Of a DNA stretch of 27,573 nt, positions 3,605 to 22,224 are shown in pieces. Where the stretch lies: positions 1 through 27,573 of IMG/VR virus record IMGVR_UViG_3300027808_000128. One strand, written 5' to 3'. The DNA is from a virus. Its lineage: Duplodnaviria; Caudoviricetes. The notes beneath the pieces were generated by a model, which was given only the letters and a program-made list of their open reading frames with translations, searched no databases and was not told where the DNA came from. How positions within the stretch are numbered: the stretch's first letter is position 1; each line of letters begins with the position of its first letter. Position numbers and translations under genes: made by a program.

Positions 3605-6600
3605 TTATTTAGTGTCGAACTTAATAAACTGCTCCTCCTTATTAAACTCGTCGTTTAAGATCTTCAACCTACGGTAGCCCTCGTCGCCAAGGTTATTGAC
3701 AACCCTTTCGGCGAGTTCTTTATTGATGACTGGTCGCTCGGTATATCCGTTAAATATCAGATTAATATTTTTCGGCCCATAACCCTTCTCCTTCAGAATG
3801 CTCGCTGCTTCATTGATGGACAGGTCGCCGTGTTTGCTAGTGACGAGTCCTCTGGTAGTCTTGAATACATCTCGACTAATCTCAATCTTATTGGCTGTAT
3901 GTTCGCGGGCTAGCTCTTTAATTTCTTCATCGGATATCGGACGCTTACTTCTGAGAATATTCAAACTCGCTCTATTGGCTCTCAGCTCGGTGCTCGCGTT
4001 GGCAACCAGCTTCGTATACTGCGCTACCGTATCTACTGGGAAAGATCTAACGGGCGAACCCTCACCTATTACTATTGAAAGCGCCGAATACTGGTCGTCT
4101 ATTACGGGCGCTTGAGTCGCTTTATACGCATCAATCGCTTTCTCAAGAATGCGTGGGTTGTAAGATTTATCAAGAACATATGCGATTCCTTTCCCAAGTA
4201 TCCCTAAACCGTCCTTCTCACCGTAGATTTTCTGACCTGTTTTAGAGTCTCTATTGTAACTAGCATCAAAAATAGCGCCAGCAAGTATCTGTTGATCTCC
4301 GTATGTGCCCCAAATAGAACTTAATACGGCCATAGCAGCGCCGGATATGTCGCCGCGCCGCGCTTTCTCAAGCCCGCGCAGTATCGGATCGACCCCCAAT
4401 GCGAATGGATTGACGAATGTTAGATCCACAGATCGTAATTTACCACCCAATGTGAAGTAAAGGATCGAGTTGTCCTGCATGAAAGACGGGAGGGCGCGCC
4501 GCCGCACTTCCTCTTCTTCATCTCCGATATCAAAAATCTGTTGGGCTATTGCACCAAGCCCACCTGAAATAAGTGTTAGCACCGCAGTCATACCAATCAT
4601 TCGTTTTGCACCGCGTGCGGCCATTACTGGGTTGCCAGACTTCATCTCAGCAACGCCTTCTTTGTATGTGTTCCATATGATTCGGGGCACTTCAATTTTG
4701 AATCTTAGGAACGGAGATACCAAAACTCCAGGCCCTCTAACAAATTCTTTTACGATGGGCGGTGCTTCTGAGTAGCTCTGAGCAGTCGCAAGAACCTTTC
4801 GAGCAGCTTCTCGCTTCATCTCATAATCACTTAGGCGGCTATAGTAACTATCGTTTCCAGCATCGATGTCTGCTTGTCTCGCTCTTTCAAGAGTAGCAAG
4901 CTCATGCTTGAAATAAGCTATTTTGTAGAAGCCGTCAACGGCGCCAGATAATGCTTGAAGTCTAGACATGAGCGGGCCTACTGCTTTAGATCCTGCATCT
5001 TTAATGGCCTTCAACTTGTCTGCGATATCTTTCATATCGTTCTCCATCTTACCGACAGAAATCTTTCCGCTGAGTATATCCTTCAGGAGACCTGTCGTTA
5101 TCTCGTTGTTTAGAATGCCGAAGGCGGCAAGCTCAGCTTGTAGCTCATTGATAGCGTTCGGGTCTTTACGGAGGTTGAGGAGGTTTCCAACCAATCCCAA
5201 CTCTTTGCCCATATCAAATACGTTGATAAAGCCTTGTGACGGGCCGAAGAATATCATGTTGCTAACAATGTTACGTAAGTAGAATCCAACAGAGAATAAT
5301 GTTTTTGCTCCGAGCGATAGGCCCGTCAGTGTTGAAGCCAGCCATTGCATGTTCTCGATGGCCCTCTTTGCCTTCGTCTTATTCTCACTATCAAACTGAG
5401 GTGCATAGGCGTTACGCATGCCGTCAATCAGTTCTTTAGGTCCGTAGTAATGGTATGTGGGGTCATACTGGCCATCAAGATCTTTGGGTATTGTATCTTC
5501 GGCGTCTCCAATAAAGGCGCGACCCGTTCTAAGGTTAACGAAGTCGCCCGCAATAAAGGCTGGGTCGTTGCGCATTTTCTCATTTAACTCATCCCGCGTC
5601 ATGAGGAACCCGACCATTTCCTTCTTACCATCCAAATTAACCTGCTCTACCATTGAACCAATAGAGATCAGGTTGTTGTAGAACGATTGGCGCGAAGCCA
5701 TCGATGTTACAACGGCGAAGGTTCGGAACATGTTGTTGATCGCCTCCTCTGGTTTGTCGTATTCTCCAAGTAGTTCGCGGACGGCTGGATCTAAGTTACC
5801 TTTGTTCTTAAGGTTATCGATCAGCGACTTGGTCACGCCGCCTTCCAGTGGCCTGCGCTTACGATAATCCTTCTCATAGGATCTTAGGAACTGAGCCATG
5901 AAGTTTGCTACCGCCGATGGATCTTCATCTACTTGGTCTTCAGCCTTTTGCTTAGCTTCCTCCTTTGTAAGCTCCTTCTTGGTTTTGGTAGAGTCTTTGT
6001 CAGCGTCTATCTTGGATTTCTTTTTAAGAGTCGATGCGAGTTTGGCGACGTAACGCGCGCGGAAATACGGCGTGGCGTTGTTGCGGATCTCAACGAATTT
6101 TTCATCACTCGATGTGAGAACTTTGTCTATGTAACCCTCTTCGTTGAATGCTCTGTAAGCGCGTGTCAGATAGATTCCCATGTTCGAATCGAACTTGATC
6201 TGCATACTCTCTGAAAGAGCGTATGTGTCCTTTAGCTTTCTGGAGAACCCGTCGATCACCGAGCGGAACTCGGTTATAGTGTCGGCTAGTTCCGGATAGT
6301 CTTCGCGGATACGGCCCAGAGCAGCACTCTGCTTGCGTCGGACTTCCTCACGGGCGACATCGCGCAAAGCTTCGATTTGGTCCTTAACCATTCTCTTTCG
6401 CATCTCAGATGTTGCTTCTACAGAAATATATTTTGGGTCGAGTGTTCCTTCTTTGACCCTTCTCTTGCGTTCTTTCAAGGCTGACAGATAGGACTGCGAT
6501 AGTCTGAGTCTGGTCTCTTTATCAACCGTAAGCAGCTCGGTGCTTCCCGCTGCATCTGCAAGATCGTTCGGATCTACCGCTCCATCCGTTTCGTCGAGCA

Positions 6601-9600
6601 GCCTAGCCAGCTTCGACATGTAATTCTTAGCGATAGCCTCTACGGCATTCTCAAAAAATATCTGCTGCTTCTTCAAGCGGGTTACACGCGGATCAAGCTC
6701 GCCTTTGAACAAGCTTACTATGCCTGAGAACCCTTTGTAGTTCCCTTTTACATACTGTGAAACTGGCAGATCGATGGAATCAATCACGCTCTGGAAGCGG
6801 TTAGCTACTTCTTCATCTGTCGTTTCATCTGTGATATCCACGCTAGTCGCAGCGAACTGGCGGCGAAGAACTTCAAAGCCAGCCAGTGGCGTACGTGGGT
6901 CGAACGCATTATGGCCGTCAACCGAATAAGAACCAGCATGCAGGTAGCGCAACTCATTCGACATGAGGTGAATAATCGCTGCGAGTTCTGGGTTGTTCTT
7001 GTTGAGATTGTAACGAGCGTATGTCCGTCTGAATACTCCACGGAGGTAGCGCAACGCGATCTGCATCAGGTTCGGGCTGCCCTCAAAGAAAGCGATGTCC
7101 TCCTCTGTGGTGGAGCCGCGAGCGACCCGTTGATGATACATGCGCAGATACTCGCCTATCATCTGGCGTTTGACGTCCGCCGCGTCCGGCCCGCGAATGC
7201 CATCCTTCAAAGAAGCGCGGAGTTCAGGGTCGGATGTGTAGTCGTCGATGATGCCGTCGAACTCTTGGTCAAGAGTCTCGTCAACCAGCGCGTTGATCTT
7301 CTCGATTGGAACAGCGTTGAACTCAGCTACGTGAGTAAGCTCTTCATTGATGTATGTTTCGAGTAACGCCTTAGCCATGTTGGCGTCTTCGATCACCGAG
7401 CTGCGAGACAGCAACCTATTGCGCATGTTGGCTCTATTGATAAATATCGCGGACTGCTCCGTGCCATCTGTATTGCGGATGATCGTGGCGACGATAGCCT
7501 CGTTTGGTCGCCCATCGAATGTGCCACTATCATCAGCTTCTTGTTGAGTATTAAATACTGATACCGCTACATCGGCTGGGATCAACGAACGCACTGCCTG
7601 ATCGATCAGATAGTCAATCATCCGCTGTTGTTGAGCGGTTCCGAGTTCACCGTCAACGAGTGGCTCCAAGCTGGAGAACTGAGTGAGATCGATCTCAGCA
7701 GCGGGTTTTGCTGCATCTCTAATTGATTTTGGAATCGGGGAGAACTTACGCCCTTCGTCGATTGTCTCAGCTGCCGCGCGATCCATCCGAGCTTCAATCG
7801 AAGTGGATGCCGGATCGATGTTGCCGATTGTGGTGAAGTCGATAAGGTCTGCAAACGCAGAGTCAAAGGCTTTGTTCAAGCGGACTCCAAACAGATCCTT
7901 GATCGCGTCAATGATACGGGTGAAGAAGTTCCTGCGACTACCAGCATCTCTGGTTACTTTGAGCGTGTTCTGGAAATCGCTGGACGTGAAGAACGTGGCG
8001 ATGAACTCTTCGATGTTCTGAGTGCCCGACTCAAACAGTAGGCTTGCGCGCCCACCATCAGCAAGCTGCTTGTCATATGCGCGGCGTGAGATTTCAAGCA
8101 AACCATTGAGGCGCTTCTTAGCCGTGCGCTGAGAATCCGTGAGTTCGGATTCAGGCTTGGTGGTGAGGTCAACAGTAGCTGCGTGGAGATACTCATGAAG
8201 CAGGACGGACTCGATGCCCATTCCGTAGTATCCTGTCATATTTATGACAACGTGTCCGATACCATCGGAACCGACGCTGAACTCGCCTGCCTTATTGTTG
8301 TCGATGTTGGCGATGGTGAACTTGGTTTTGTTAATCAGATCAGGATTCTTGAGCAAGAACTGGGCGACAGCGCGGTGCTGCTTGTTCTTGCTGCTCTTCA
8401 TGATCTCCTTCATAGCTGCGGCTACAGAGTTCGGGTTACCGGATTCAAGGTTCAGGCGCTTGATTTCTTTCTCGTTCTTGACGCGGAAGAAATTACGGTG
8501 CTTTGAGTTGATGAACGACGGTGCATCAAAGCGGTGGATTTTCTCTGCCAGAGATTTGTGTAAACTCTTCGCTTCAGATTCCGTGATATTTAGTTTTTCC
8601 GCGAGCAATGTCGGAACAGATTTCTGTGTGAGTAGTGTGGTCTCTAATTCTGAGAAGCCAAGTCTACGTAACGTGTCGCGTTGTTTCTTATCAGCGACCC
8701 TCTTGAAGTCGTATTTGTAAACGCCGTAGGCTTCGAAAGCCCTGCTGATAAGAGCCGTCGATTTATTCGTAGCTTGAAAGCGGTCGAGAAACTGACGGCG
8801 GAATCGGTAAGAATCCGTTTGGGAATGGCTTTTAGATACTGCCCATAGGGCGATAGCTCTAAATAATTTTTCTGGTTTCAGGCTTTCGGCAAGAGCTGGG
8901 CTGTCTTTATGGACGGTGTCCTTAGCGAGTGCTCGCAGGGCTAGCTGAACGTCTCTGTCGGAGTCGAACAGCTCGTATGCGGGCTTCAAAAAGAGCTTCG
9001 GCATCGCTGCTGCAGCTTCACTAGCCGCTAGTTTATCAAAGATGTATGGGAGTGTAGACTCGCCTGTGGTATACATTTGCCCAAACTCGGACTCTTTCAC
9101 AGCCTCAATAGCGCCCGAACGCTTTTTAGGGTCGAGCGCGAAGACGTCTTCAGTGGCTTTCTCCTCAAGGGCATACTGGACTCGTTTGAGGGCGCGTGTA
9201 CCTACTCGAGACGCAATAGCTTTTATGTTGGGGAACAAACCGTTTTCATCTGGACGCGCAATATCATCATTGATAATACCGTCGATATAAGAATCGAGGA
9301 CTCTGTTCTCCCAATCGGCGGTAAGCTTCTTCGTCTTGTTCTTCTCGCCTTCTTTTAGGATTGGTTTGCGCTGGCCTTTCTTAAAGCCAAACGTATAGAT
9401 GAAGGCGGCTTTGCGGTTTGTTTCTTCCGTGATTGGGAGATCGGTTTTAGCACCCGTAAAGTCAGCGGGAACTTTGATACGTTCTAGTAAGGCGTTACGC
9501 GCTTCTTGCTCAGCCCCAGCTTTGATCGAAAAGAGACCGTCCACCACCTCTATTGCTCCCGCTCTCTGGAGGCTCTGGAATAGCTCTCCAAATAAAAGAG

Positions 9601-12600
9601 CTTTCTTAAACTCTGGGACAAGCTCTAGCGCCGCCGTTTCTTTAGCTAGCTCAAGGCTTGCCCCCTTTAGGTTGGCGCGGCTAATGTCTGACATGGCAAG
9701 CATTGCAGCAGCCATGTCCTCCGCTTGCTTCTTGGCAGTTTTGTCTTCTTTTTTACTATAATCGCCAGCAAGACTACCCCCTCTAAAAATCACATAAATT
9801 TTTCCGATAAGGTCGTCTACCTTAATAGACGCTTCGCCGAATGTAGTTTGAGCGTCGTCTAATGGCGTGGTGTCGGTAATGTTATTCAGATCGCGATGGA
9901 TTTCCATCGGAGCGTAGGACAGCGGTTTGAATCCCTCAAGGAGTTCAAACGAATCGTCGGCAGTCTTAGATACGAGTGACGTCTTTTTGCGGCCGCTCCT
10001 TTTATCTTTGCGTTCCAACACATTCGGGTCTGCTGCAGTTGGACCATCTACACGGATAACCAATCGAGTAGTCTTATCAAACACAATCGACTTGTTCCGT
10101 AGGAGCTCAGGAAATGATTCCGGAACCCTTACCGGAATCTCAGCTCGCAAAAACTGGATCATGCTCCGTGGATTGTTGTCGAACAATCCGATCTTTACCC
10201 CGCCGTCAGTAGCTATATAATACGTCTGCTTGTTTCTTTCTACAAACTTGCCGCTAACTGGATCAAATTCATTTGCCTGCGGAGTTCTAAGGGCTTCAGG
10301 ATTCAGGATGTCGGAATAACTTGCAATCTTTGCGGCATTGAGGACTGGATACTTTTCGTAGATTAGTTTAGAAATGAGATCGGATATCTCGGATGAGCTT
10401 TTGACATTCTGGTAGCCGTTTGGCATCCCATAAGCACTGCCTTTAGTTAACCTAATCGGGAAACCCTGCTCTACTATCAAATCAATAGTGCTGCCAATAG
10501 CCTTTTTGATGGCCTTGATCTGACCTGCTTGGAGCGGGTCTGACGCAGCCGCTTCCTTACCCGTCTTTCTTTCTGAAGCCGCTTTCTTTGTAGCTGCCTT
10601 AGCTTCTGCCACAGCTGCTTTCTCAGCTGCCTTAGCTTCTGCCGCAGCCGCTTTCTCAGCTGCCTTAGCTTCTGCCGCAGCTGTTTTCTCAGCGGCTTTC
10701 TTTGCTCCGCTGTCTTTTATTTGAGCTGCTGTTTTTGCAGCCGTATCAGCTTTGCGTTGCGCTGCTTGCGCCGCTTTCGCGGCTGCCGCCGCATCCTTTG
10801 TTGCGGCGGCCGCAGCCTTCGCAGCTTCAGCCGCCTCTGCTATCGTAACTTCCTTTGCGGCTTTTGTTCTGGCTTCATAAAGTTCGCGTGTCCGCGCCAT
10901 CGCCCATTCAGGAAATTCTGGTTCTTGAGGTGCTAATGTCGCAAGAGCCTTATCAACTTGTTCTTTCGTCAGTCCTTGCTGCTCGCCTGCCACGTATATA
11001 GCTTTTATGTCGCTCGGAGTTATCTTAAGTTCATTAAGCTCATCGTCTGTAGCGTCATCAATAACACTCGCGCCAACTTCGGGCGTAGTGTATGTAAGCA
11101 CTAACGCGGGAGATTCCGGCGAACTCTCCGAAAGAACTTCATCGATAGCTTCTTGGATAGCACTCCCAGATGCGCCGTCTAGATCTGCTTGAATTTCTTC
11201 CATAGAGTCTCCCTCTATATCAGGTTCAGTGCTTGGGGCGGCTCCGCCATATAGAGTAGCTAGAAACTCTTTCACTCTAGTGATCTCTGCATTAAGATCG
11301 TCAACAGTAGTCGCCGTATTGTTTTGAACGGGGCTAAGACTTTGGTTGATAAATGGGATAGCGGGTCCTTTACGACCTGTTTTCGGTATGTCTTTATTAC
11401 CTCGTATATCACCTACGGTATCGTTGAGGTGCGTAGCAATTGCGCGCAACATTGGTGACCCATAATAATCGTTGATATCGGCACTACCTGTTTTGTTAAG
11501 CCAACCATCTTCTCCAATACCGAAGAATGGATACCATTTACCAGCGGGCACTCCTTTTTTACCGCCACCTCCTGTTGATATATAGAACGGGAGTTTCATT
11601 CCACCAACATCTAATACAGTAATAATTCGGCCAGAATAATTGATGACTCCTGTTTCTCCGGCTCGAGTCTCTAGCGGGCCATTAGTTGTGCGGGCATAGG
11701 TAGACTCGAAAGGAATCTGAACGGCGAGTGCTGAATTTTCTCCGAAGGAGAAGGCAGGTGCTGTAAAGTTGTTAGCTACAGATGGGGGTTCTACGGGCGC
11801 AGCAATTGCTATAGGCGCGGCAGTTGTTGCCACCGCTTCAGGCGCGCTTATGTTCAGCACGGGGGCTTCGGGTAAATCGACATCCTTTATGTCTGCGTCA
11901 AAAGAAGCCGCCGTAGCGGCAGTGGCAGAACCAGCGGTAGCAGCGGTGGCGGCTGGTGTTTTGGGTGCGGCAGTCGATGCTTTTTGCAGCGGGTTCCTTA
12001 GTCTGTTAAGGATAACGTCTGCCGCAAGTGGACTGCCAGCGTCTTTCAGTTTAGTGGAAAGATCGGTAATTACTTTATTCCATGCCGCGTCGCGGCTCTC
12101 TGCTTCAATAGCACCGCCGCGCGCCAGTCGTCCAGCAGTCCGCTGAAAGACTCCCATACCACCACCGAATACACCGCCGTAGAAGCCAGCCATTGCCGAT
12201 TGCTGTAACCGTTCAAGGATCGGGACGTCTTGGCCAGTAGCTGCGCTTTGGATATACCCGTTAACCAACTCATCGGCAGCTTCTTCCAAAGCTTCGTCGG
12301 TGAACTTCTTGGCAATGTCAGCGGGTGCTGAATTTTTCCACATGGACTTCAAGCCTTTCTTCGCATACTCAGCAACCACTTTATCGAAATCAGCGCCTTC
12401 GCCAAATTCCCTACCTCTTATCTTTGTAAGGACTGCTTTAAGCTGGCGTGGTGTGGCACCGCCAAGAATGAAGTCTTCAAGACCACCGCGTCCTATCATC
12501 GAGAAACCGAGTGTGATGCCGCCAGTAACAGTTCCGGCTACAATGCCAGCGGCAAGCGCGCGCGAGTGCTTCTCGTCCTTAGTAAGGTCTTTACCTTCGG

Positions 12601-14494
12601 GCGAATTCTCCAAAGCAGAATACACAGACGCGTAGGTGTTGCCACCAGATCTTGTAGCTGCGGGGATAAACATAGCGGACCTGATCACATACTTGTTTGC
12701 CGTTGTCTTTGCATACGCGCTGATTGCAGTTTCGGCAGACGCTATCGCCGCTTCTTTGGTAGCTCCTTTGACAAGTCCGCTAGTAACGAGTCGTTGGGCA
12801 GCCGCCGACGCTGTTTCTTTTGCTCCAGTAGCAAGTGCGCCACGGGTAATGCCGAGAACAACGCCACGGGCAGTGAGCCTTGCGCCAACGTAAGCCGCTC
12901 CACCTACTCCGGTCGCGGCGGTTAATATAGCGGTAGCAGCTACATCAAATACGACGGGGGCCGCCATTTCGCCGAGCGTCATTGCCATGCCAAAATTATC
13001 GCCGAACATGTTGGCAAGGCGGCGGCGTGAATCCCGCTCCCTCTGGTTTGTGAGGAGGATCTCACGCGCGGCATCAGACTTGGCAACAACTCCGAATGCC
13101 CCCAATATATCTTCATAAGAAGATACGATGGACGCGCCGATGGCGTCGATCCTATTTCGTATGAAACCATAATCAGCGGTCTGTAGGAACTCGTCGAGAA
13201 TCTCCCCGTCCTTTTTGTCTTCGGAATATCCTTTCTGGAGTGCGCGGTTCCAATCGTCTGCAAGATGAGTGTCCTTAAATACTTTGTCGTATTCGTTGAA
13301 CATCGACTGGATCACAAGATCGCGGTCTTTGGCCATCCCCTCTTTTTGCTTTTCAGAAAGGTCGGAGTTCGCGAGCATCGCCTTAAAAGCAACTTTGTTT
13401 GTAAAGGCTTCGCGGTGGATGACGGGGGATTTATATCCAAAGTAACGAAGGTTCCTGCTCCCTTCTTCTTCTGTAGAATACTTTAGCAGTCCTTGTTGAG
13501 CAGCTGCGTCGCCCGCCTTGAATTCCACAGCGGCTTGCTTATCGGCGGTTGAAATGTAACCCGCGTCCGGTAGTAGATCATCCATCTTATCGATGATAAG
13601 GCCATACAGTTCTTCGTTTGAAGGTTTACGCAAAGACTTAACGTCCTCTCTTATAGCATCGCTATCGTAACGGAGATACTGTTCTATTTGTTTAAGCGAC
13701 TCGCTGTCGTCACTACGCCCCTGCACCCCGCCATCATAGTGGTCTTGCTTGCCCATGTTCTCTGCGAGTGCTTGCACCCATTTTTCTACCTCTTTGTCTT
13801 CCTTGATAAGAGTCTCCGCTGCGGCAATGGCGTCGAAGTAGTTTATAGCTTTGAAGTTAGGAACCGATTGGCCTTCTTGGATCTCATAAGACTTCTTGAT
13901 TGCAAGCGCGTCGTCTGGTGAGATAATACCAGCACGCAAACTCTGCTTGTATGCTTCGACTGGCGTGAGGTTTTCCGCGAGATCACCACCTACAAATATG
14001 TAGCCCCCATTCTTTTGTTTGACTTTAGCGAACGGAATAGAACCGTCGGCAACCTTAGCGAGCTGAGATTTATCGAAGTTGGTGTCTAGAATCAACTTCA
14101 CTTGTTCTTCAAGAACAGGCATACGGTCAGCATACTCTTGCTGAGACTCCTCAGAAAGGCGGCCACTGGTCATCAATTCTTTGGCTACGTTATACTCGCG
14201 AAGAACCGATCTATCCTCAGAAGCAGGGTCGGTATAGTCGTATACCGAAGCCAACTGCGCTTCGAAAGAAACGCCCTTATCTTCAAACTCTAGCTTAATC
14301 GCTTCTTCAGAAACATCGATAGACCGTAGAGAATCCGCAAAGTTATTATTGATGAGCTGTGCAGTTGCTCCATCGAGTTCATCATTCGCAAGATACTCGC
14401 CGATGACATACTCTTTATACTTCCTCCGCTGTTCAATTTGATCTGTGATATTATTTTGGGCGGACCAAATGTCGATTGGAGTAAGCTCAGTCAT
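3605..14494 (-). CDS. Giant (3629 aa) polyvalent protein, probably a virion-packaged ejection protein, with a zincin-like metallopeptidase domain
   Basis: VLLHEYLHA (HEYLHA at 8180-8197) with downstream NIEEFIA; Gly/Ala-rich hydrophobic segments; Ala/Lys helical repeats; last and largest of three genes of increasing size after terL. Confidence 0.75.
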   Translation of the reverse strand: MTELTPIDIWSAQNNITDQIEQRRKYKEYVIGEYLANDELDGATAQLINNNFADSLRSIDVSEEAIKLEFEDKGVSFEAQLASVYDYTDPASEDRSVLREYNVAKELMTSGRLSEESQQEYADRMPVLEEQVKLILDTNFDKSQLAKVADGSIPFAKVKQKNGGYIFVGGDLAENLTPVEAYKQSLRAGIISPDDALAIKKSYEIQEGQSVPNFKAINYFDAIAAAETLIKEDKEVEKWVQALAENMGKQDHYDGGVQGRSDDSESLKQIEQYLRYDSDAIREDVKSLRKPSNEELYGLIIDKMDDLLPDAGYISTADKQAAVEFKAGDAAAQQGLLKYSTEEEGSRNLRYFGYKSPVIHREAFTNKVAFKAMLANSDLSEKQKEGMAKDRDLVIQSMFNEYDKVFKDTHLADDWNRALQKGYSEDKKDGEILDEFLQTADYGFIRNRIDAIGASIVSSYEDILGAFGVVAKSDAAREILLTNQRERDSRRRLANMFGDNFGMAMTLGEMAAPVVFDVAATAILTAATGVGGAAYVGARLTARGVVLGITRGALATGAKETASAAAQRLVTSGLVKGATKEAAIASAETAISAYAKTTANKYVIRSAMFIPAATRSGGNTYASVYSALENSPEGKDLTKDEKHSRALAAGIVAGTVTGGITLGFSMIGRGGLEDFILGGATPRQLKAVLTKIRGREFGEGADFDKVVAEYAKKGLKSMWKNSAPADIAKKFTDEALEEAADELVNGYIQSAATGQDVPILERLQQSAMAGFYGGVFGGGMGVFQRTAGRLARGGAIEAESRDAAWNKVITDLSTKLKDAGSPLAADVILNRLRNPLQKASTAAPKTPAATAATAGSATAATAASFDADIKDVDLPEAPVLNISAPEAVATTAAPIAIAAPVEPPSVANNFTAPAFSFGENSALAVQIPFESTYARTTNGPLETRAGETGVINYSGRIITVLDVGGMKLPFYISTGGGGKKGVPAGKWYPFFGIGEDGWLNKTGSADINDYYGSPMLRAIATHLNDTVGDIRGNKDIPKTGRKGPAIPFINQSLSPVQNNTATTVDDLNAEITRVKEFLATLYGGAAPSTEPDIEGDSMEEIQADLDGASGSAIQEAIDEVLSESSPESPALVLTYTTPEVGASVIDDATDDELNELKITPSDIKAIYVAGEQQGLTKEQVDKALATLAPQEPEFPEWAMARTRELYEARTKAAKEVTIAEAAEAAKAAAAATKDAAAAAKAAQAAQRKADTAAKTAAQIKDSGAKKAAEKTAAAEAKAAEKAAAAEAKAAEKAAVAEAKAATKKAASERKTGKEAAASDPLQAGQIKAIKKAIGSTIDLIVEQGFPIRLTKGSAYGMPNGYQNVKSSSEISDLISKLIYEKYPVLNAAKIASYSDILNPEALRTPQANEFDPVSGKFVERNKQTYYIATDGGVKIGLFDNNPRSMIQFLRAEIPVRVPESFPELLRNKSIVFDKTTRLVIRVDGPTAADPNVLERKDKRSGRKKTSLVSKTADDSFELLEGFKPLSYAPMEIHRDLNNITDTTPLDDAQTTFGEASIKVDDLIGKIYVIFRGGSLAGDYSKKEDKTAKKQAEDMAAAMLAMSDISRANLKGASLELAKETAALELVPEFKKALLFGELFQSLQRAGAIEVVDGLFSIKAGAEQEARNALLERIKVPADFTGAKTDLPITEETNRKAAFIYTFGFKKGQRKPILKEGEKNKTKKLTADWENRVLDSYIDGIINDDIARPDENGLFPNIKAIASRVGTRALKRVQYALEEKATEDVFALDPKKRSGAIEAVKESEFGQMYTTGESTLPYIFDKLAASEAAAAMPKLFLKPAYELFDSDRDVQLALRALAKDTVHKDSPALAESLKPEKLFRAIALWAVSKSHSQTDSYRFRRQFLDRFQATNKSTALISRAFEAYGVYKYDFKRVADKKQRDTLRRLGFSELETTLLTQKSVPTLLAEKLNITESEAKSLHKSLAEKIHRFDAPSFINSKHRNFFRVKNEKEIKRLNLESGNPNSVAAAMKEIMKSSKNKQHRAVAQFLLKNPDLINKTKFTIANIDNNKAGEFSVGSDGIGHVVINMTGYYGMGIESVLLHEYLHAATVDLTTKPESELTDSQRTAKKRLNGLLEISRRAYDKQLADGGRASLLFESGTQNIEEFIATFFTSSDFQNTLKVTRDAGSRRNFFTRIIDAIKDLFGVRLNKAFDSAFADLIDFTTIGNIDPASTSIEARMDRAAAETIDEGRKFSPIPKSIRDAAKPAAEIDLTQFSSLEPLVDGELGTAQQQRMIDYLIDQAVRSLIPADVAVSVFNTQQEADDSGTFDGRPNEAIVATIIRNTDGTEQSAIFINRANMRNRLLSRSSVIEDANMAKALLETYINEELTHVAEFNAVPIEKINALVDETLDQEFDGIIDDYTSDPELRASLKDGIRGPDAADVKRQMIGEYLRMYHQRVARGSTTEEDIAFFEGSPNLMQIALRYLRGVFRRTYARYNLNKNNPELAAIIHLMSNELRYLHAGSYSVDGHNAFDPRTPLAGFEVLRRQFAATSVDITDETTDEEVANRFQSVIDSIDLPVSQYVKGNYKGFSGIVSLFKGELDPRVTRLKKQQIFFENAVEAIAKNYMSKLARLLDETDGAVDPNDLADAAGSTELLTVDKETRLRLSQSYLSALKERKRRVKEGTLDPKYISVEATSEMRKRMVKDQIEALRDVAREEVRRKQSAALGRIREDYPELADTITEFRSVIDGFSRKLKDTYALSESMQIKFDSNMGIYLTRAYRAFNEEGYIDKVLTSSDEKFVEIRNNATPYFRARYVAKLASTLKKKSKIDADKDSTKTKKELTKEEAKQKAEDQVDEDPSAVANFMAQFLRSYEKDYRKRRPLEGGVTKSLIDNLKNKGNLDPAVRELLGEYDKPEEAINNMFRTFAVVTSMASRQSFYNNLISIGSMVEQVNLDGKKEMVGFLMTRDELNEKMRNDPAFIAGDFVNLRTGRAFIGDAEDTIPKDLDGQYDPTYHYYGPKELIDGMRNAYAPQFDSENKTKAKRAIENMQWLASTLTGLSLGAKTLFSVGFYLRNIVSNMIFFGPSQGFINVFDMGKELGLVGNLLNLRKDPNAINELQAELAAFGILNNEITTGLLKDILSGKISVGKMENDMKDIADKLKAIKDAGSKAVGPLMSRLQALSGAVDGFYKIAYFKHELATLERARQADIDAGNDSYYSRLSDYEMKREAARKVLATAQSYSEAPPIVKEFVRGPGVLVSPFLRFKIEVPRIIWNTYKEGVAEMKSGNPVMAARGAKRMIGMTAVLTLISGGLGAIAQQIFDIGDEEEEVRRRALPSFMQDNSILYFTLGGKLRSVDLTFVNPFALGVDPILRGLEKARRGDISGAAMAVLSSIWGTYGDQQILAGAIFDASYNRDSKTGQKIYGEKDGLGILGKGIAYVLDKSYNPRILEKAIDAYKATQAPVIDDQYSALSIVIGEGSPVRSFPVDTVAQYTKLVANASTELRANRASLNILRSKRPISDEEIKELAREHTANKIEISRDVFKTTRGLVTSKHGDLSINEAASILKEKGYGPKNINLIFNGYTERPVINKELAERVVNNLGDEGYRRLKILNDEFNKEEQFIKFDTK
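10592..10695 (-). repeat. 33-bp coding tandem repeat, about 3 copies (AAEKxAxAEAK)
   Basis: Near-identical units GCTTTCTCAGCTGCCTTAGCTTCTGCCGCAGC on the + strand. Confidence 0.85.
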
Positions 14495-19523: not shown

Positions 19524-20011
19524 TTATTGGAATCGATAACGGTCTCGACGGCGGTATTTGCGCCATCTCTGCTTTTTCAGGCGACCTTATCGCTTACATG
19601 GAAATGCCATGTAAGGAGCGCGCTGGCAAGCGAGAGATTGATACACTTAAAGTATATCAATGGATCATGGATCTGAATACTGATTCCCGAATCCTGATTG
19701 AGGAACCCCTCAAGCATGCGAAGACATCGCAAGCCATGCGCTCGATGGGCATCTCATTCGGCAAACTGCTCGGCATGTGTGAGTCGCACATCCTTACCGT
19801 TGAGCCTGTCGAAGTGCTTAAATGGCAGAAGGTAATGCTTGGCAAAGTAATCAAAGGCCAGACGAAAAAAGTAGCCCTTGAGAAAGCACAAGCATTCGAA
19901 CCTGAAGAAAAATGGTTGGCCTCTCCGCGCTGCCGCGTCCCGCATGATGGTATCGTGGACGCTTACCTAATCGCCCAGTATGGGCGCTTCTCAACTCTCA
20001 TAAAACCATGA
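19520..20011 (+). CDS. RuvC-like Holliday junction resolvase
   Basis: MIIGIDNGLDGG, ILIEE, SFG, KWQK, HDGIVDAYLIA: the RNase H-fold D-E-D-D pattern of phage RuvC-like proteins. Confidence 0.85.
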   Translation: MIIGIDNGLDGGICAISAFSGDLIAYMEMPCKERAGKREIDTLKVYQWIMDLNTDSRILIEEPLKHAKTSQAMRSMGISFGKLLGMCESHILTVEPVEVLKWQKVMLGKVIKGQTKKVALEKAQAFEPEEKWLASPRCRVPHDGIVDAYLIAQYGRFSTLIKP

Positions 20012-21180
20012 CACCTATCCACATTGAACCTGCGAACAATTCCGGCGCACGCTTTAACAACGACCCTAAAGGCACAGTCGGCGCTACCAAAACACCACTA
20101 GCATTGATCCCACCGTTTGCTATGGAGCAGACCGCGTGGGTCCACAAGTTAGGTGCAGAGAAATATGGCAAAAAGATTCCAGTTTATGCTTGCAATGATG
20201 GCGTTGAACTGGCAGAATTCTGTTCGTGCGGATACTCCATACAAAACCAACGTGCCACCCAGACAGGCCACATGCCGCTCGCGGACTATGTTTCGAGTGC
20301 TACAATAAAGAACACCCAAGAAGCAAGCGGGCCTCATGTCATGAAGGAAGAGTTGCATGGGCAAAAGGATTATGTAAATCCTGCTACGACAAACAGCTTA
20401 GGCTTTCAGATCCAAGTTACGATAGCAGACAAAAAAGTATTACTAACGACTGGGTCTCAAAAAATAAAGAATATCTTAGAATCCAACATTCTGAATACAA
20501 TAGAAGACCAGAAATTAAGGAAAGAAATACTGTCAACAATAGGATTAGAACTCTTCAATCATTTGGGTTATCGTTGGAAGATGAACTCAGAATTTTGGGT
20601 GAGCAAAATTACGGATGCAAAGTTTGCGGTGGACCAGCAGGAAGAAAAGGATTATTTGACATCGACCACGATCACAAGTCTGGAAGATTTAGAGGATTTA
20701 TATGTCACAGGTGCAATAAAGGGCTTGGCCTGCTCGGAGACAATATCGAGTCTGTTGAAAAAGCACTCGCATACCTGCGATGTTCAGAATCTAATTATTC
20801 GTGATGGTGAAGTAGAGCAGTATGGGGCCTATAATTGGAGGCGCACAGGCGTATGTGCGACCACGTATGTCGCAGCGATCATGCGACACCTCAACGCTTG
20901 GCGTGACGGGGAAGACCTTGACCCTGAATCCGGTATCTCTCACATCGCTCATGCGGCCTGTAGCTGCAACATCCTACTGGACGCCCAGCACTGCGGCACG
21001 TTACAGGATGACCGATACAGGAAGCCCTCTAACCCACATCGCGGATCGGAATTTAAAGCTGAAGAATTTGGTGTTGAAACGGGTCGCCCGCCAGAAAGCG
21101 AAATGGAATGTTTGTGGTGTGGCCGCAGGCTCATCTATTCATGGAACATGGGCTGGGCTTGTGAAGACTGCCATCTTTAG
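20008..21180 (+). CDS. DUF5664-type dATP/dGTP diphosphohydrolase domain protein with a 219-aa in-frame insertion and a C-terminal Zn ribbon
   Basis: Removing 20170-20826 gives KTPLALIPP...GAEKYG|AYNWR...YVAAIMRHLNAWRDGEDLDPESGISHIAHAACSCNILLD...DDR, the canonical family pattern. The tail is CLWC...CEDC. Confidence 0.85.
   Translation: MTPIHIEPANNSGARFNNDPKGTVGATKTPLALIPPFAMEQTAWVHKLGAEKYGKKIPVYACNDGVELAEFCSCGYSIQNQRATQTGHMPLADYVSSATIKNTQEASGPHVMKEELHGQKDYVNPATTNSLGFQIQVTIADKKVLLTTGSQKIKNILESNILNTIEDQKLRKEILSTIGLELFNHLGYRWKMNSEFWVSKITDAKFAVDQQEEKDYLTSTTITSLEDLEDLYVTGAIKGLACSETISSLLKKHSHTCDVQNLIIRDGEVEQYGAYNWRRTGVCATTYVAAIMRHLNAWRDGEDLDPESGISHIAHAACSCNILLDAQHCGTLQDDRYRKPSNPHRGSEFKAEEFGVETGRPPESEMECLWCGRRLIYSWNMGWACEDCHL
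20170..20826 (+). mobile_element. 657-bp frame-preserving insertion carrying a putative homing endonuclease
   Basis: Splits the conserved KYGxxNW motif. Flanked by a degenerate direct repeat GCAGAGAAATATGG / GTAGAGCAGTATGG. About 41% GC versus about 56-59% in the flanks (hand count). Confidence 0.8.
20226..20804 (+). CDS. Endonuclease VII-family (His-Me finger) nuclease nested out of frame in the DUF5664 gene
   Basis: QNYGCKVCG...DIDHDHKSGRFRGFICHRCNKGLGLLGDN...ALAYL is the EndoVII signature. Two N-terminal CH..R..A.GLC..CY repeats. GTG start uncertain; the nearest upstream in-frame stop is at 20205. Confidence 0.9.
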   Translation: MRILHTKPTCHPDRPHAARGLCFECYNKEHPRSKRASCHEGRVAWAKGLCKSCYDKQLRLSDPSYDSRQKSITNDWVSKNKEYLRIQHSEYNRRPEIKERNTVNNRIRTLQSFGLSLEDELRILGEQNYGCKVCGGPAGRKGLFDIDHDHKSGRFRGFICHRCNKGLGLLGDNIESVEKALAYLRCSESNYS

Positions 21181-21230: not shown

Positions 21231-21557
21231 ATGAACGATAAATTCCAAGTAGGACACGTAGGATGGAGTCCAGATTACGACTCTAACAAACCCAGACGAA
21301 TAGGCTACACCAAACTAGACCGAATGCTTTTTATTTACGCTCTTAATGGAGTAATAAAATGTTACTCAGCCGAAGAGATTCGAGAAGTAGAAGCGAGACT
21401 CTTAGATGAAGGATGGAAGCACACCGCAACGATTGACCCTGCGCGATGGATTGAGGCGATGGCAAACGGGCATCAAGAACCAAGCGATATGCTGGATGAA
21501 ATTCAATTTATGCCAAACGCTACAAAAACACCCGTGTTACCGAGCAGTAACTTCTAA
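21231..21557 (+). CDS. Hypothetical protein (108 aa)
   Basis: ORF directly after the candidate promoter. No motif recognised. Confidence 0.65.
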   Translation: MNDKFQVGHVGWSPDYDSNKPRRIGYTKLDRMLFIYALNGVIKCYSAEEIREVEARLLDEGWKHTATIDPARWIEAMANGHQEPSDMLDEIQFMPNATKTPVLPSSNF

Positions 21558-21591
21558 TTCAAAAAGCACAACACAAACAAAAATATTACCG

Positions 21592-22224
21592 ATGAGGAAC
21601 ACCAACCTACCTAAGTCTAGAGTCTATGTCCGTTGCGATGCCTTTGGCGGTAGTGATACGGAGTATGAGCCAGCGTGGTTAGTAAGCGTCCGTGCAATGC
21701 GGAACCGCCCGTTCTGCTTCCAAGTGTGGGTGGACAAATACGCCGCTTGCTTTGACAAGATTCCGCCACAGTGCATCTACCACTACGAGCCAGACGGAGA
21801 TCAAGTTGACCTACCACTTCACAAGGTACAGATGTGGGAGTGTTTGTCTGGTAGCATTGAAGTCTGGCAGAAAAGCCAGCTTTGCGATGTGCCGATGCTT
21901 GTCAACATGGGTAAGGGTTGCGCTCCAATGACTGGGCATTACTGGTTCACGATTGATTTCCTGCCTGAGAATCAAGCTGCTGGGACACTGGACATCGGTG
22001 ACGTTGAACTTCTGGAGGAACACAAGGAGGGCAACGTGGTCAAGCTATCGAATGGGCAGATTGCAATATACCCAAACAACCGACTCAAATGGATGCCTCT
22101 CAGCCTGACCCCGAAAGACGCGGTCGAACGCATTCCTGACTGGAACGTCGCCACGAACGAACAATGGGACGACTGGTGGCAAGACTCGACAGAACTTTTA
22201 GGTGACGCTAAGTGGGCGTATTGA
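21592..22224 (+). CDS. Conserved phage protein of unknown function (~210 aa)
   Basis: Start moved to ATG 21592 to avoid overlap. NLP..VYVR, FDKIP, QMWEC, G.YWFTID and EHK..N...L.NGQ.A.YPNNR resemble a family I recall from aquatic phages. Confidence 0.7.
   Translation: MRNTNLPKSRVYVRCDAFGGSDTEYEPAWLVSVRAMRNRPFCFQVWVDKYAACFDKIPPQCIYHYEPDGDQVDLPLHKVQMWECLSGSIEVWQKSQLCDVPMLVNMGKGCAPMTGHYWFTIDFLPENQAAGTLDIGDVELLEEHKEGNVVKLSNGQIAIYPNNRLKWMPLSLTPKDAVERIPDWNVATNEQWDDWWQDSTELLGDAKWAY

Follow-up and report, generated by a model that had tools for sequence, protein, structure and literature searches.

The stretch of DNA analysed here, a phage contig of 27,573 nucleotides referred to below as the window, raises the question of how a conserved enzyme gene can house a complete nuclease gene in its middle and still keep its own frame open from end to end. 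The host gene is an open reading frame for 390 amino acids (20008..21180, plus strand) which is open throughout and matches PF18909 (DUF5664, dATP/dGTP diphosphohydrolase) in Pfam, the match falling in two stretches. The N-terminal part of the domain ends with the residues G-A-E-K-Y (20008..20166, plus strand; pLDDT 92-97 at residues 31-50), and the C-terminal part of the protein, with G-A-Y-N-W...R-H...D-P-E-S-G...H..H and a cysteine-rich tail, follows at 20824..21180 on the same strand. Between them lies an insertion element of 657 nt (20167..20823, plus strand) with a GC content of 41.7% as compared to 51.9% and 54.5% in the flanks. It is free of host-frame stop codons, with 21 stops in the remaining plus-strand frame, and its frame 3 encodes an Endonuclease VII-like nuclease of 192 amino acids with a GTG start (20226..20804, plus strand; PF02945, E 8.7e-16). 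A sequence-only reading of this DNA had described a DUF5664 motif split by 657 nt, with a stop-free host frame and the EndoVII frame nested in it, which the matches to the two Pfam families bear out. Its hand count of about 41% GC for the insert was also right, whereas the 56-59% given for the flanks was too high.

Further genes of the window match terminase, a virion RNA polymerase-like protein, helicase and DNA polymerase A. A 3629-aa reading frame (3605-14494, minus strand) resembles a virion RNA polymerase family no more than weakly (E 1.8e-6). A 272-aa frame (21406-22224) overlaps a 108-aa frame (21231-21557) by about 150 nt, and as its family match starts at residue 65 its true start probably lies later than 21406. 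No purZ-like gene was found among the 24 window reading frames scanned. The cysteine-rich tail of the host protein (21090-21177; pLDDT 82-86) is common to some filled and some empty alleles.

The pentamer TATGG is present at both junctions (20164-20168 and 20821-20825), so that the boundary of the insert can slide. The sequence-only reading had placed the insertion between K-Y-G and x-x-N-W, i.e. at 20170-20826, which has the same length as 20167-20823. Among 52 members of the insert family described below, the residue after K-Y varies (G in 20, T in 18, S in 10, N in 3, D in 1) and the G preceding x-x-N-W is kept in 44, and the site is therefore best written as K-Y/G, the stroke marking the point of insertion; 44 of the 52 inserts end in G and 10 in YG. 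The repetition of TATGG at the two ends stands, while the accompanying V-E-Q-Y-G duplication is confined to a close clade and is not a general feature, and a target-site duplication was rejected since V-E-Q-Y is limited to that clade. The window sequence is present in at least 24 freshwater-type DNA runs from 23 studies, six of these runs being possible sources of this DNA; no RNA run is among those listed, which has no bearing on expression. Of the 24, four were examined, and X7 and X14 each have a contig that bridges both junctions (754 nt and 8.3 kb, respectively); the insert is also present in three further viral contigs (L087-L089). As the X7 and X14 contigs span both junctions, the insert is a genuine feature of this phage DNA and an assembly chimera is excluded.

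The motifs of the nested nuclease are intact, comprising two N-terminal CH-P...CxxC repeats, D-H-D-H and C-x-x-C-N, and its profile match, D-H-x-H, C-x-x-C-N and four zinc cysteines place it in PF02945. Its start lies at the same place in the relatives L090 and L094, with ATG instead of the GTG of the window, and outside the nuclease frame the insert has only about 19 and 7 codons. A possible extended -10 element, TG-g-CAGAAT (20210..20218, plus strand), was noticed by eye 7 nt upstream of the GTG, and TG-g-TATAGT was noticed in the same way 6 nt upstream of the ATG of a free-standing-like nuclease gene, L095; a promoter scan gave no site within the insert and did not report TG-g-CAGAAT. A leaderless internal transcript for the nuclease, as this element may suggest, is a lead only. 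The nuclease of L096 has AGGAGG 7 nt upstream of its ATG, and this site is covered by a short hairpin. An inverted repeat CCAGTT...AACTGG is located just 5' of the nuclease start (window 20179-20212, and the matching place in L090, L094 and L095); folding of the insert RNA and of eight end segments yielded nothing significant (z -1.72 to +1.13). The L095 gene (3001-3561 of an Aeromicrobium MAG contig) encodes a full-length nuclease, 47% identical to that of the window; the gene is not nested at its 5' side, and the locus is truncated by the contig end. It is a possible ancestor or escapee of the nested element.

How strongly the open host frame of a single copy speaks for selection depends on the model. 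With the nuclease protein kept fixed, a stop-free host frame would arise with a probability of 0.015 under the codon usage of this phage and of 8e-4 under uniform codons. The stop rates of 125 unrelated EndoVII matches yield a chance of 3.6e-4, and those of 55 unrelated matches below 50% GC, none of which is stop-free (0/55), a chance of 5e-6. The value of 1e-5 to 1e-6 proposed from the sequence alone is thus model-dependent, the estimates running from 0.015 down to 5e-6, and the single open copy by itself is suggestive evidence for selection on the host frame, below decisive. The argument is carried by the family and not by the single copy.

In 13 of the 120 listed homologues (of 248) of the 390-aa protein an in-frame insert is present (coverage 82-96%, identity 47-96%), and in the remaining 107 K-Y and N-W are separated by exactly three residues. 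An insert-only profile, built from three sequences and searched against 1.84 billion representatives, returned 48 matches, which were 47 PF18909 proteins and one Ig-repeat false positive. The in-frame inserts at one site which had been anticipated among homologues were found in 53 of the 59 sequences examined, all with both junctions at the same place and with inserts of 191-231 aa, the open fraction being inflated since protein searches detect open host frames only. Of the remaining six, five start within the insert and the last escaped the search pattern. The sequences starting inside are L096, which is open at the DNA level, two on contigs shorter than 1 kb, and P0178 and P0192 on contigs of 5.7 and 13 kb, which could be interrupted copies. 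Less one near-copy, the 53 sequences form the set of 52 inserts used throughout, with a median pairwise identity of 27%. The nested nuclease was confirmed at the DNA level in L090/L091, L094 and L096 (a Modicisalibacter prophage); together with the window type these are the four divergent types for which DNA was examined, and all are open. Three of the four were also recovered from the nuclease side, and of 42 nucleases found independently, three show 95-99% codon compatibility with the inserts P0004, P0012 and P0167. Same-site open inserts across many divergent hosts thus uphold the proposal that the host frame is under selection. A tblastn search with the host-frame insert gave no match in 50,697 cultured phage records. 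Six inserts (P0173, P0190, P0195, P0196, P0197 and P0203) are 191-196 aa long, about 25 residues shorter than the rest, and look as if one N-terminal nuclease repeat were missing.

The distribution of the insert is patchy. Among 80 host loci, 76 are empty, three are filled and one is unreadable. Between the window and L088 only 2 of the 657 insert positions differ, as compared to 23 of 120 and 17 of 200 positions in the flanks (pS 0.46 and 0.27), and there are no differences in the 12 nt and 47 nt adjoining the junctions. The resolvase-like gene upstream shares about 90% identity with its counterpart in the empty-allele phages L010-L013 and 50% with that in L088. Recent homing with co-conversion would leave such a pattern, the cleavage step being deduced from the distribution. 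Together with the same-site open inserts in many divergent hosts and the lack of an intron or intein signature the pattern agrees with the splicing-free selfish element which had been proposed for this locus.

Comparison of the window with L090 and L094, i.e. of three sequences and few codons, suggests which frame is read where. In the middle of the insert the nuclease frame has pS 0.74-0.81 and pN 0.23, and the host frame pS 0.28-0.30 and pN 0.34-0.37. At the ends the host frame is the constrained one, with pS 0.47-0.56 and pN 0.18-0.22 in the first 18 codons (the N-arm) and pS 0.83 and pN 0.08-0.13 in the last 16 codons, where pS is about equal to pN in the nuclease frame. By these values selection changes frame, from the nuclease frame mid-insert to the host frame at both ends, and they point to translation of the ends in the host frame. 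The sequence-only reading had expected conservation in the nuclease frame and nothing beyond stop avoidance in the host frame; the former was found mid-insert, whereas the ends appear to be under purifying selection at the protein level.

The two ends are also where structure is predicted. The N-arm (20170..20229, plus strand) would form a strand, I-P-V-Y, and a short helix followed by C72-x-C74, the codon of C72 being located at 20221-20223 and that of C74 at 20227-20229, where it overlaps the nuclease start codon. The C-arm (20692..20826, plus strand) would form a helix ending with H253-x3-C257 (codons 20764-20766 and 20776-20778, plus strand) and then a beta-hairpin back to G-x-x-N-W. We take the pattern of C-x-C and H-x3-C to be a likely zinc site, in which zinc would be bound by C72, C74, H253 and C257, the two arms being predicted to fold into a small clasp. 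An AlphaFold model with 58 sequences gave pLDDT values of 73-88 for residues 51-80, 83-92 for residues 241-280, 92-98 for the host core, and below 50 for most of the insert middle. A model of the insert only, for which the alignment comprised 47 sequences, excluding fragments and the six without the clasp motifs, yielded 72-76 and 84-89 for the ends, with strands at residues 5-7, 212-215 and 218-221, and here the C-arm hairpin is the sole possible partner of the N-arm strand; the pTM values of the two models were 0.49 and 0.34. A structure search with the full model found 2p06 as the best match (Z 7.0, rmsd 4.7, 85 residues aligned, below the reliable level of the tool), the alignment covering residues 23-329 and hence spanning both host halves. 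With the insert-only model the best match had Z 3.9 and consisted of long helices, one low-confidence helix dominating the search and the clasp being barely covered. A search of a viral structure library gave PF18909 proteins only.

Among the 52 inserts C72 is conserved in 47, C74 in 49, and H253 and C257 in 46 each; where other conserved nuclease residues with four or six codons overlie the host frame, the host-frame residue is kept in 12-34 of 52. The two motifs occur together in 43 of the 52, six have neither and three have one alone (Fisher p 9e-6, not corrected for kinship). The best tree has five changes in their joint loss, a single clade is not rejected (p-AU 0.42), and the supported branches yield only two independent pairs, so that repeated loss is not demonstrated by the tree. 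No clasp-bearing mini-element devoid of the nuclease was seen in the 107 of 107 listed insert-free homologues, and a profile search aimed at such elements gave only five proteins which were already known.

A first alternative is a homing element whose product is a tolerated loop without any zinc clasp, the ends being a plain beta-stalk, expression signals of the nuclease and an imprint of its codons. This explanation has some points in its favour: the start codon of the nuclease overlaps C74 and partly forces this residue, the -10-like element and the CCAGTT/AACTGG hairpin are located in the N-arm, whose conservation could in part serve a promoter or hairpin, and positions of the imprint type such as T220 are equally conserved. 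Since T220 (48 of 52), T218 (41) and A236 (40) are highly conserved too, the clasp does not stand out by conservation alone, and since the motifs are absent from 6 of 52 elements the clasp is not obligatory. Against it, C72 lies outside the nuclease reading frame and its codon differs without a change of residue, being TGT in the window but TGC in L090 and L094, and H253 and C257 require specific synonymous nuclease codons. In 75 of 102 unrelated EndoVII sequences A-x-x-Y-L is present, and the corresponding frame of these 75 has the histidine in six, the cysteine in four and both in one. The apparently free-standing relative L095 has four stops in the frame matching the host frame and lacks both C-x-C and H-x3-C, and P0176 lacks the histidine and has C-x-x-C in its place. 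We consider an element without a clasp unlikely.

A second alternative is that the insert is removed from the RNA or skipped by the ribosome, as an unrecognised intron or a bypass, and that the open frame is a fallback. The TATGG repeat at both junctions of the close clade would fit with this. In agreement with what had been read from the sequence alone, Pfam, Rfam, RNA folding and boundary residues all gave no signature of intron or intein machinery; Rfam produced three weak matches (E 2.3-9.1), none of them an intron family, and the insert RNA folds no better than its shuffles (z 0.32). Group I and II introns were rejected by this folding value and by covariance models, which detected no ribozyme core. 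Bypassing of the T4 gene 60 type is defined by a stop codon right after the take-off codon; it was rejected as the insert has no host-frame stop, and the 5' junction is not followed by one. The ends vary in length and sequence across the family, and their synonymous variation in the host frame, indicative of selection on the translated protein, argues against removal from RNA. Such removal or skipping is in our view very improbable.

The same low probability is given to a third alternative, namely loss or dispensability of the host gene: the long protein would be made without being active, and the frame would be kept open only to avoid polarity or toxic fragments. The purifying selection seen in the host flanks may predate the insertion, and P0178 and P0192 as possibly interrupted copies would also be compatible with such a loss. 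Against it stands host-frame selection specific to the insert on both arms, and 46 of the 47 insert-bearing hosts exceed the PF18909 cut-off, with W277 and H294 invariant in 58 aligned sequences. It is hardly credible that the conserved Cys and His are the catalysts of a novel domain for protein splicing or self-cleavage: Cys and His are conserved near both ends, and inteins with out-of-frame EndoVII are described in the available text of 10.1101/2025.01.02.630785, but no Pfam intein family matches, the insert is followed mostly by A or D (S in 3, C in 1 and T in 0 of 52), none of the 52 inserts has a terminal His-Asn, the Cys and His are 16-20 residues inside the junctions, and the models have short arms with a disordered middle.

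The explanation we favour, with a probability of roughly two thirds, is a homing element carrying an EndoVII gene in a shifted frame which is read through in the host frame and whose ends form a likely zinc-bound clasp rejoining the host halves. The nuclease would be translated separately from its own start and would cut empty alleles near K-Y/G-x-x-N-W, whereupon repair would copy the insert in. The host gene would be read straight through to give the 390-aa protein, in which a loop of about 150 residues would be largely disordered. The two arms would pair and extrude this loop, and the host domain could then assemble without splicing. The chances are about even that an old lineage of selfish elements has in this way exchanged splicing for folding, by means of a split zinc clasp and beta-stalk encoded in the host frame at the ends of the element. 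If so, homing nucleases would have a third dedicated means of residing inside a gene, beside ribozymes and Hint domains, and the clasp and stalk would be a portable scaffold to graft loops of about 150 residues into proteins. The family supports, by sequence comparison, both translation of the host frame and selection on it, and the four named residues give a mutational handle on the mechanism. Annotation conceals such nucleases, as the long proteins carry the PF18909 label only.

The sequence-only reading had considered the arrangement possibly undescribed, which does not hold. The principle of the layout was published in 2025 for the ShiLan hidden-HNH element of actinophage methylases (PMC11855218), where a tolerated loop was proposed without experiments; in the available text of that paper both the retention of the inserts in the host protein and the means by which the host tolerates them are left open. 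As far as that text goes, the window element shares with ShiLan/Pacc40 gp60 an in-frame insert of about 200 codons without a host-frame stop, a frame-3 nuclease with a GTG start a little way in, a lack of intron or intein signatures, a patchy distribution and the proposed read-through as a loop. The features by which that type is recognised are found here in an in-frame insert of 3n length at a conserved site, a complete nested nuclease frame, no detected intron or intein machinery, and near-identical inserts in diverged alleles with patchy occurrence; the likeness drawn here is one of layout. Unlike ShiLan, with a DNA methylase as host, the host here is PF18909 and the nuclease belongs to PF02945 (EndoVII), the family comprises dozens of clusters below 50% identity at one site, and the ends are conserved, predicted to be folded and carry C-x-C and H-x3-C, which do not appear in the available account in PMC11855218. 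New here are the breadth of a single-site family, the switch of frame in selection, and a likely mechanism of tolerance in the conserved clasp. A literature search, with most subscription papers outside its reach, found no paper on the insert family or the clasp.

Related arrangements were seen in other hosts. Helicase-methylase genes of more than 1000 codons have an EndoVII frame nested in an open frame (L172 901-4542, L217/L218 1153-4473, L226/L228 1354-4515), and the host in L218 is about 60% identical to the Tiff81-type helicase-methylase, a family discussed together with Pacc40 gp60. A SNF2-type helicase (L224 981-3032) has a nested EndoVII frame in the same relative frame as the window element, which differs from that in L172, L218 and L228. 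In L223 (2076-2825) an open frame of 250 codons without a Pfam match lies over an EndoVII frame, which may be due to chance at 59% GC.

Out-of-frame nucleases are also known from inteins. According to the accessible parts of the respective reports, EndoVII-like nucleases lie out of frame within actinophage inteins (10.1101/2025.01.02.630785), and a cyanobacterial dnaX intein has an out-of-frame LAGLIDADG nuclease with frame-dependent selection (10.64898/2026.09.14.751524). With these the window element has in common a frame-3 nuclease in an open insert and selection on the nuclease frame in the overlap; in contrast to them, as they are described there with splicing domains and as splicing, it has neither intein boundary residues nor a match to an intein family. 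Free-standing EndoVII homing genes, apparently including L095, belong to the same nuclease family, whereas the gene of the window is embedded in its target, whose frame is open. The host domain, finally, matches PF18909 like the dNTP pyrophosphohydrolase of phage Wayne, a DUF5664 protein which, in the available text of PMC12884076, hydrolyses dATP, dUTP and dGTP to monophosphates. As this is a small enzyme with a published assay, versions with the insert, with a mutated clasp and without the insert are directly comparable.
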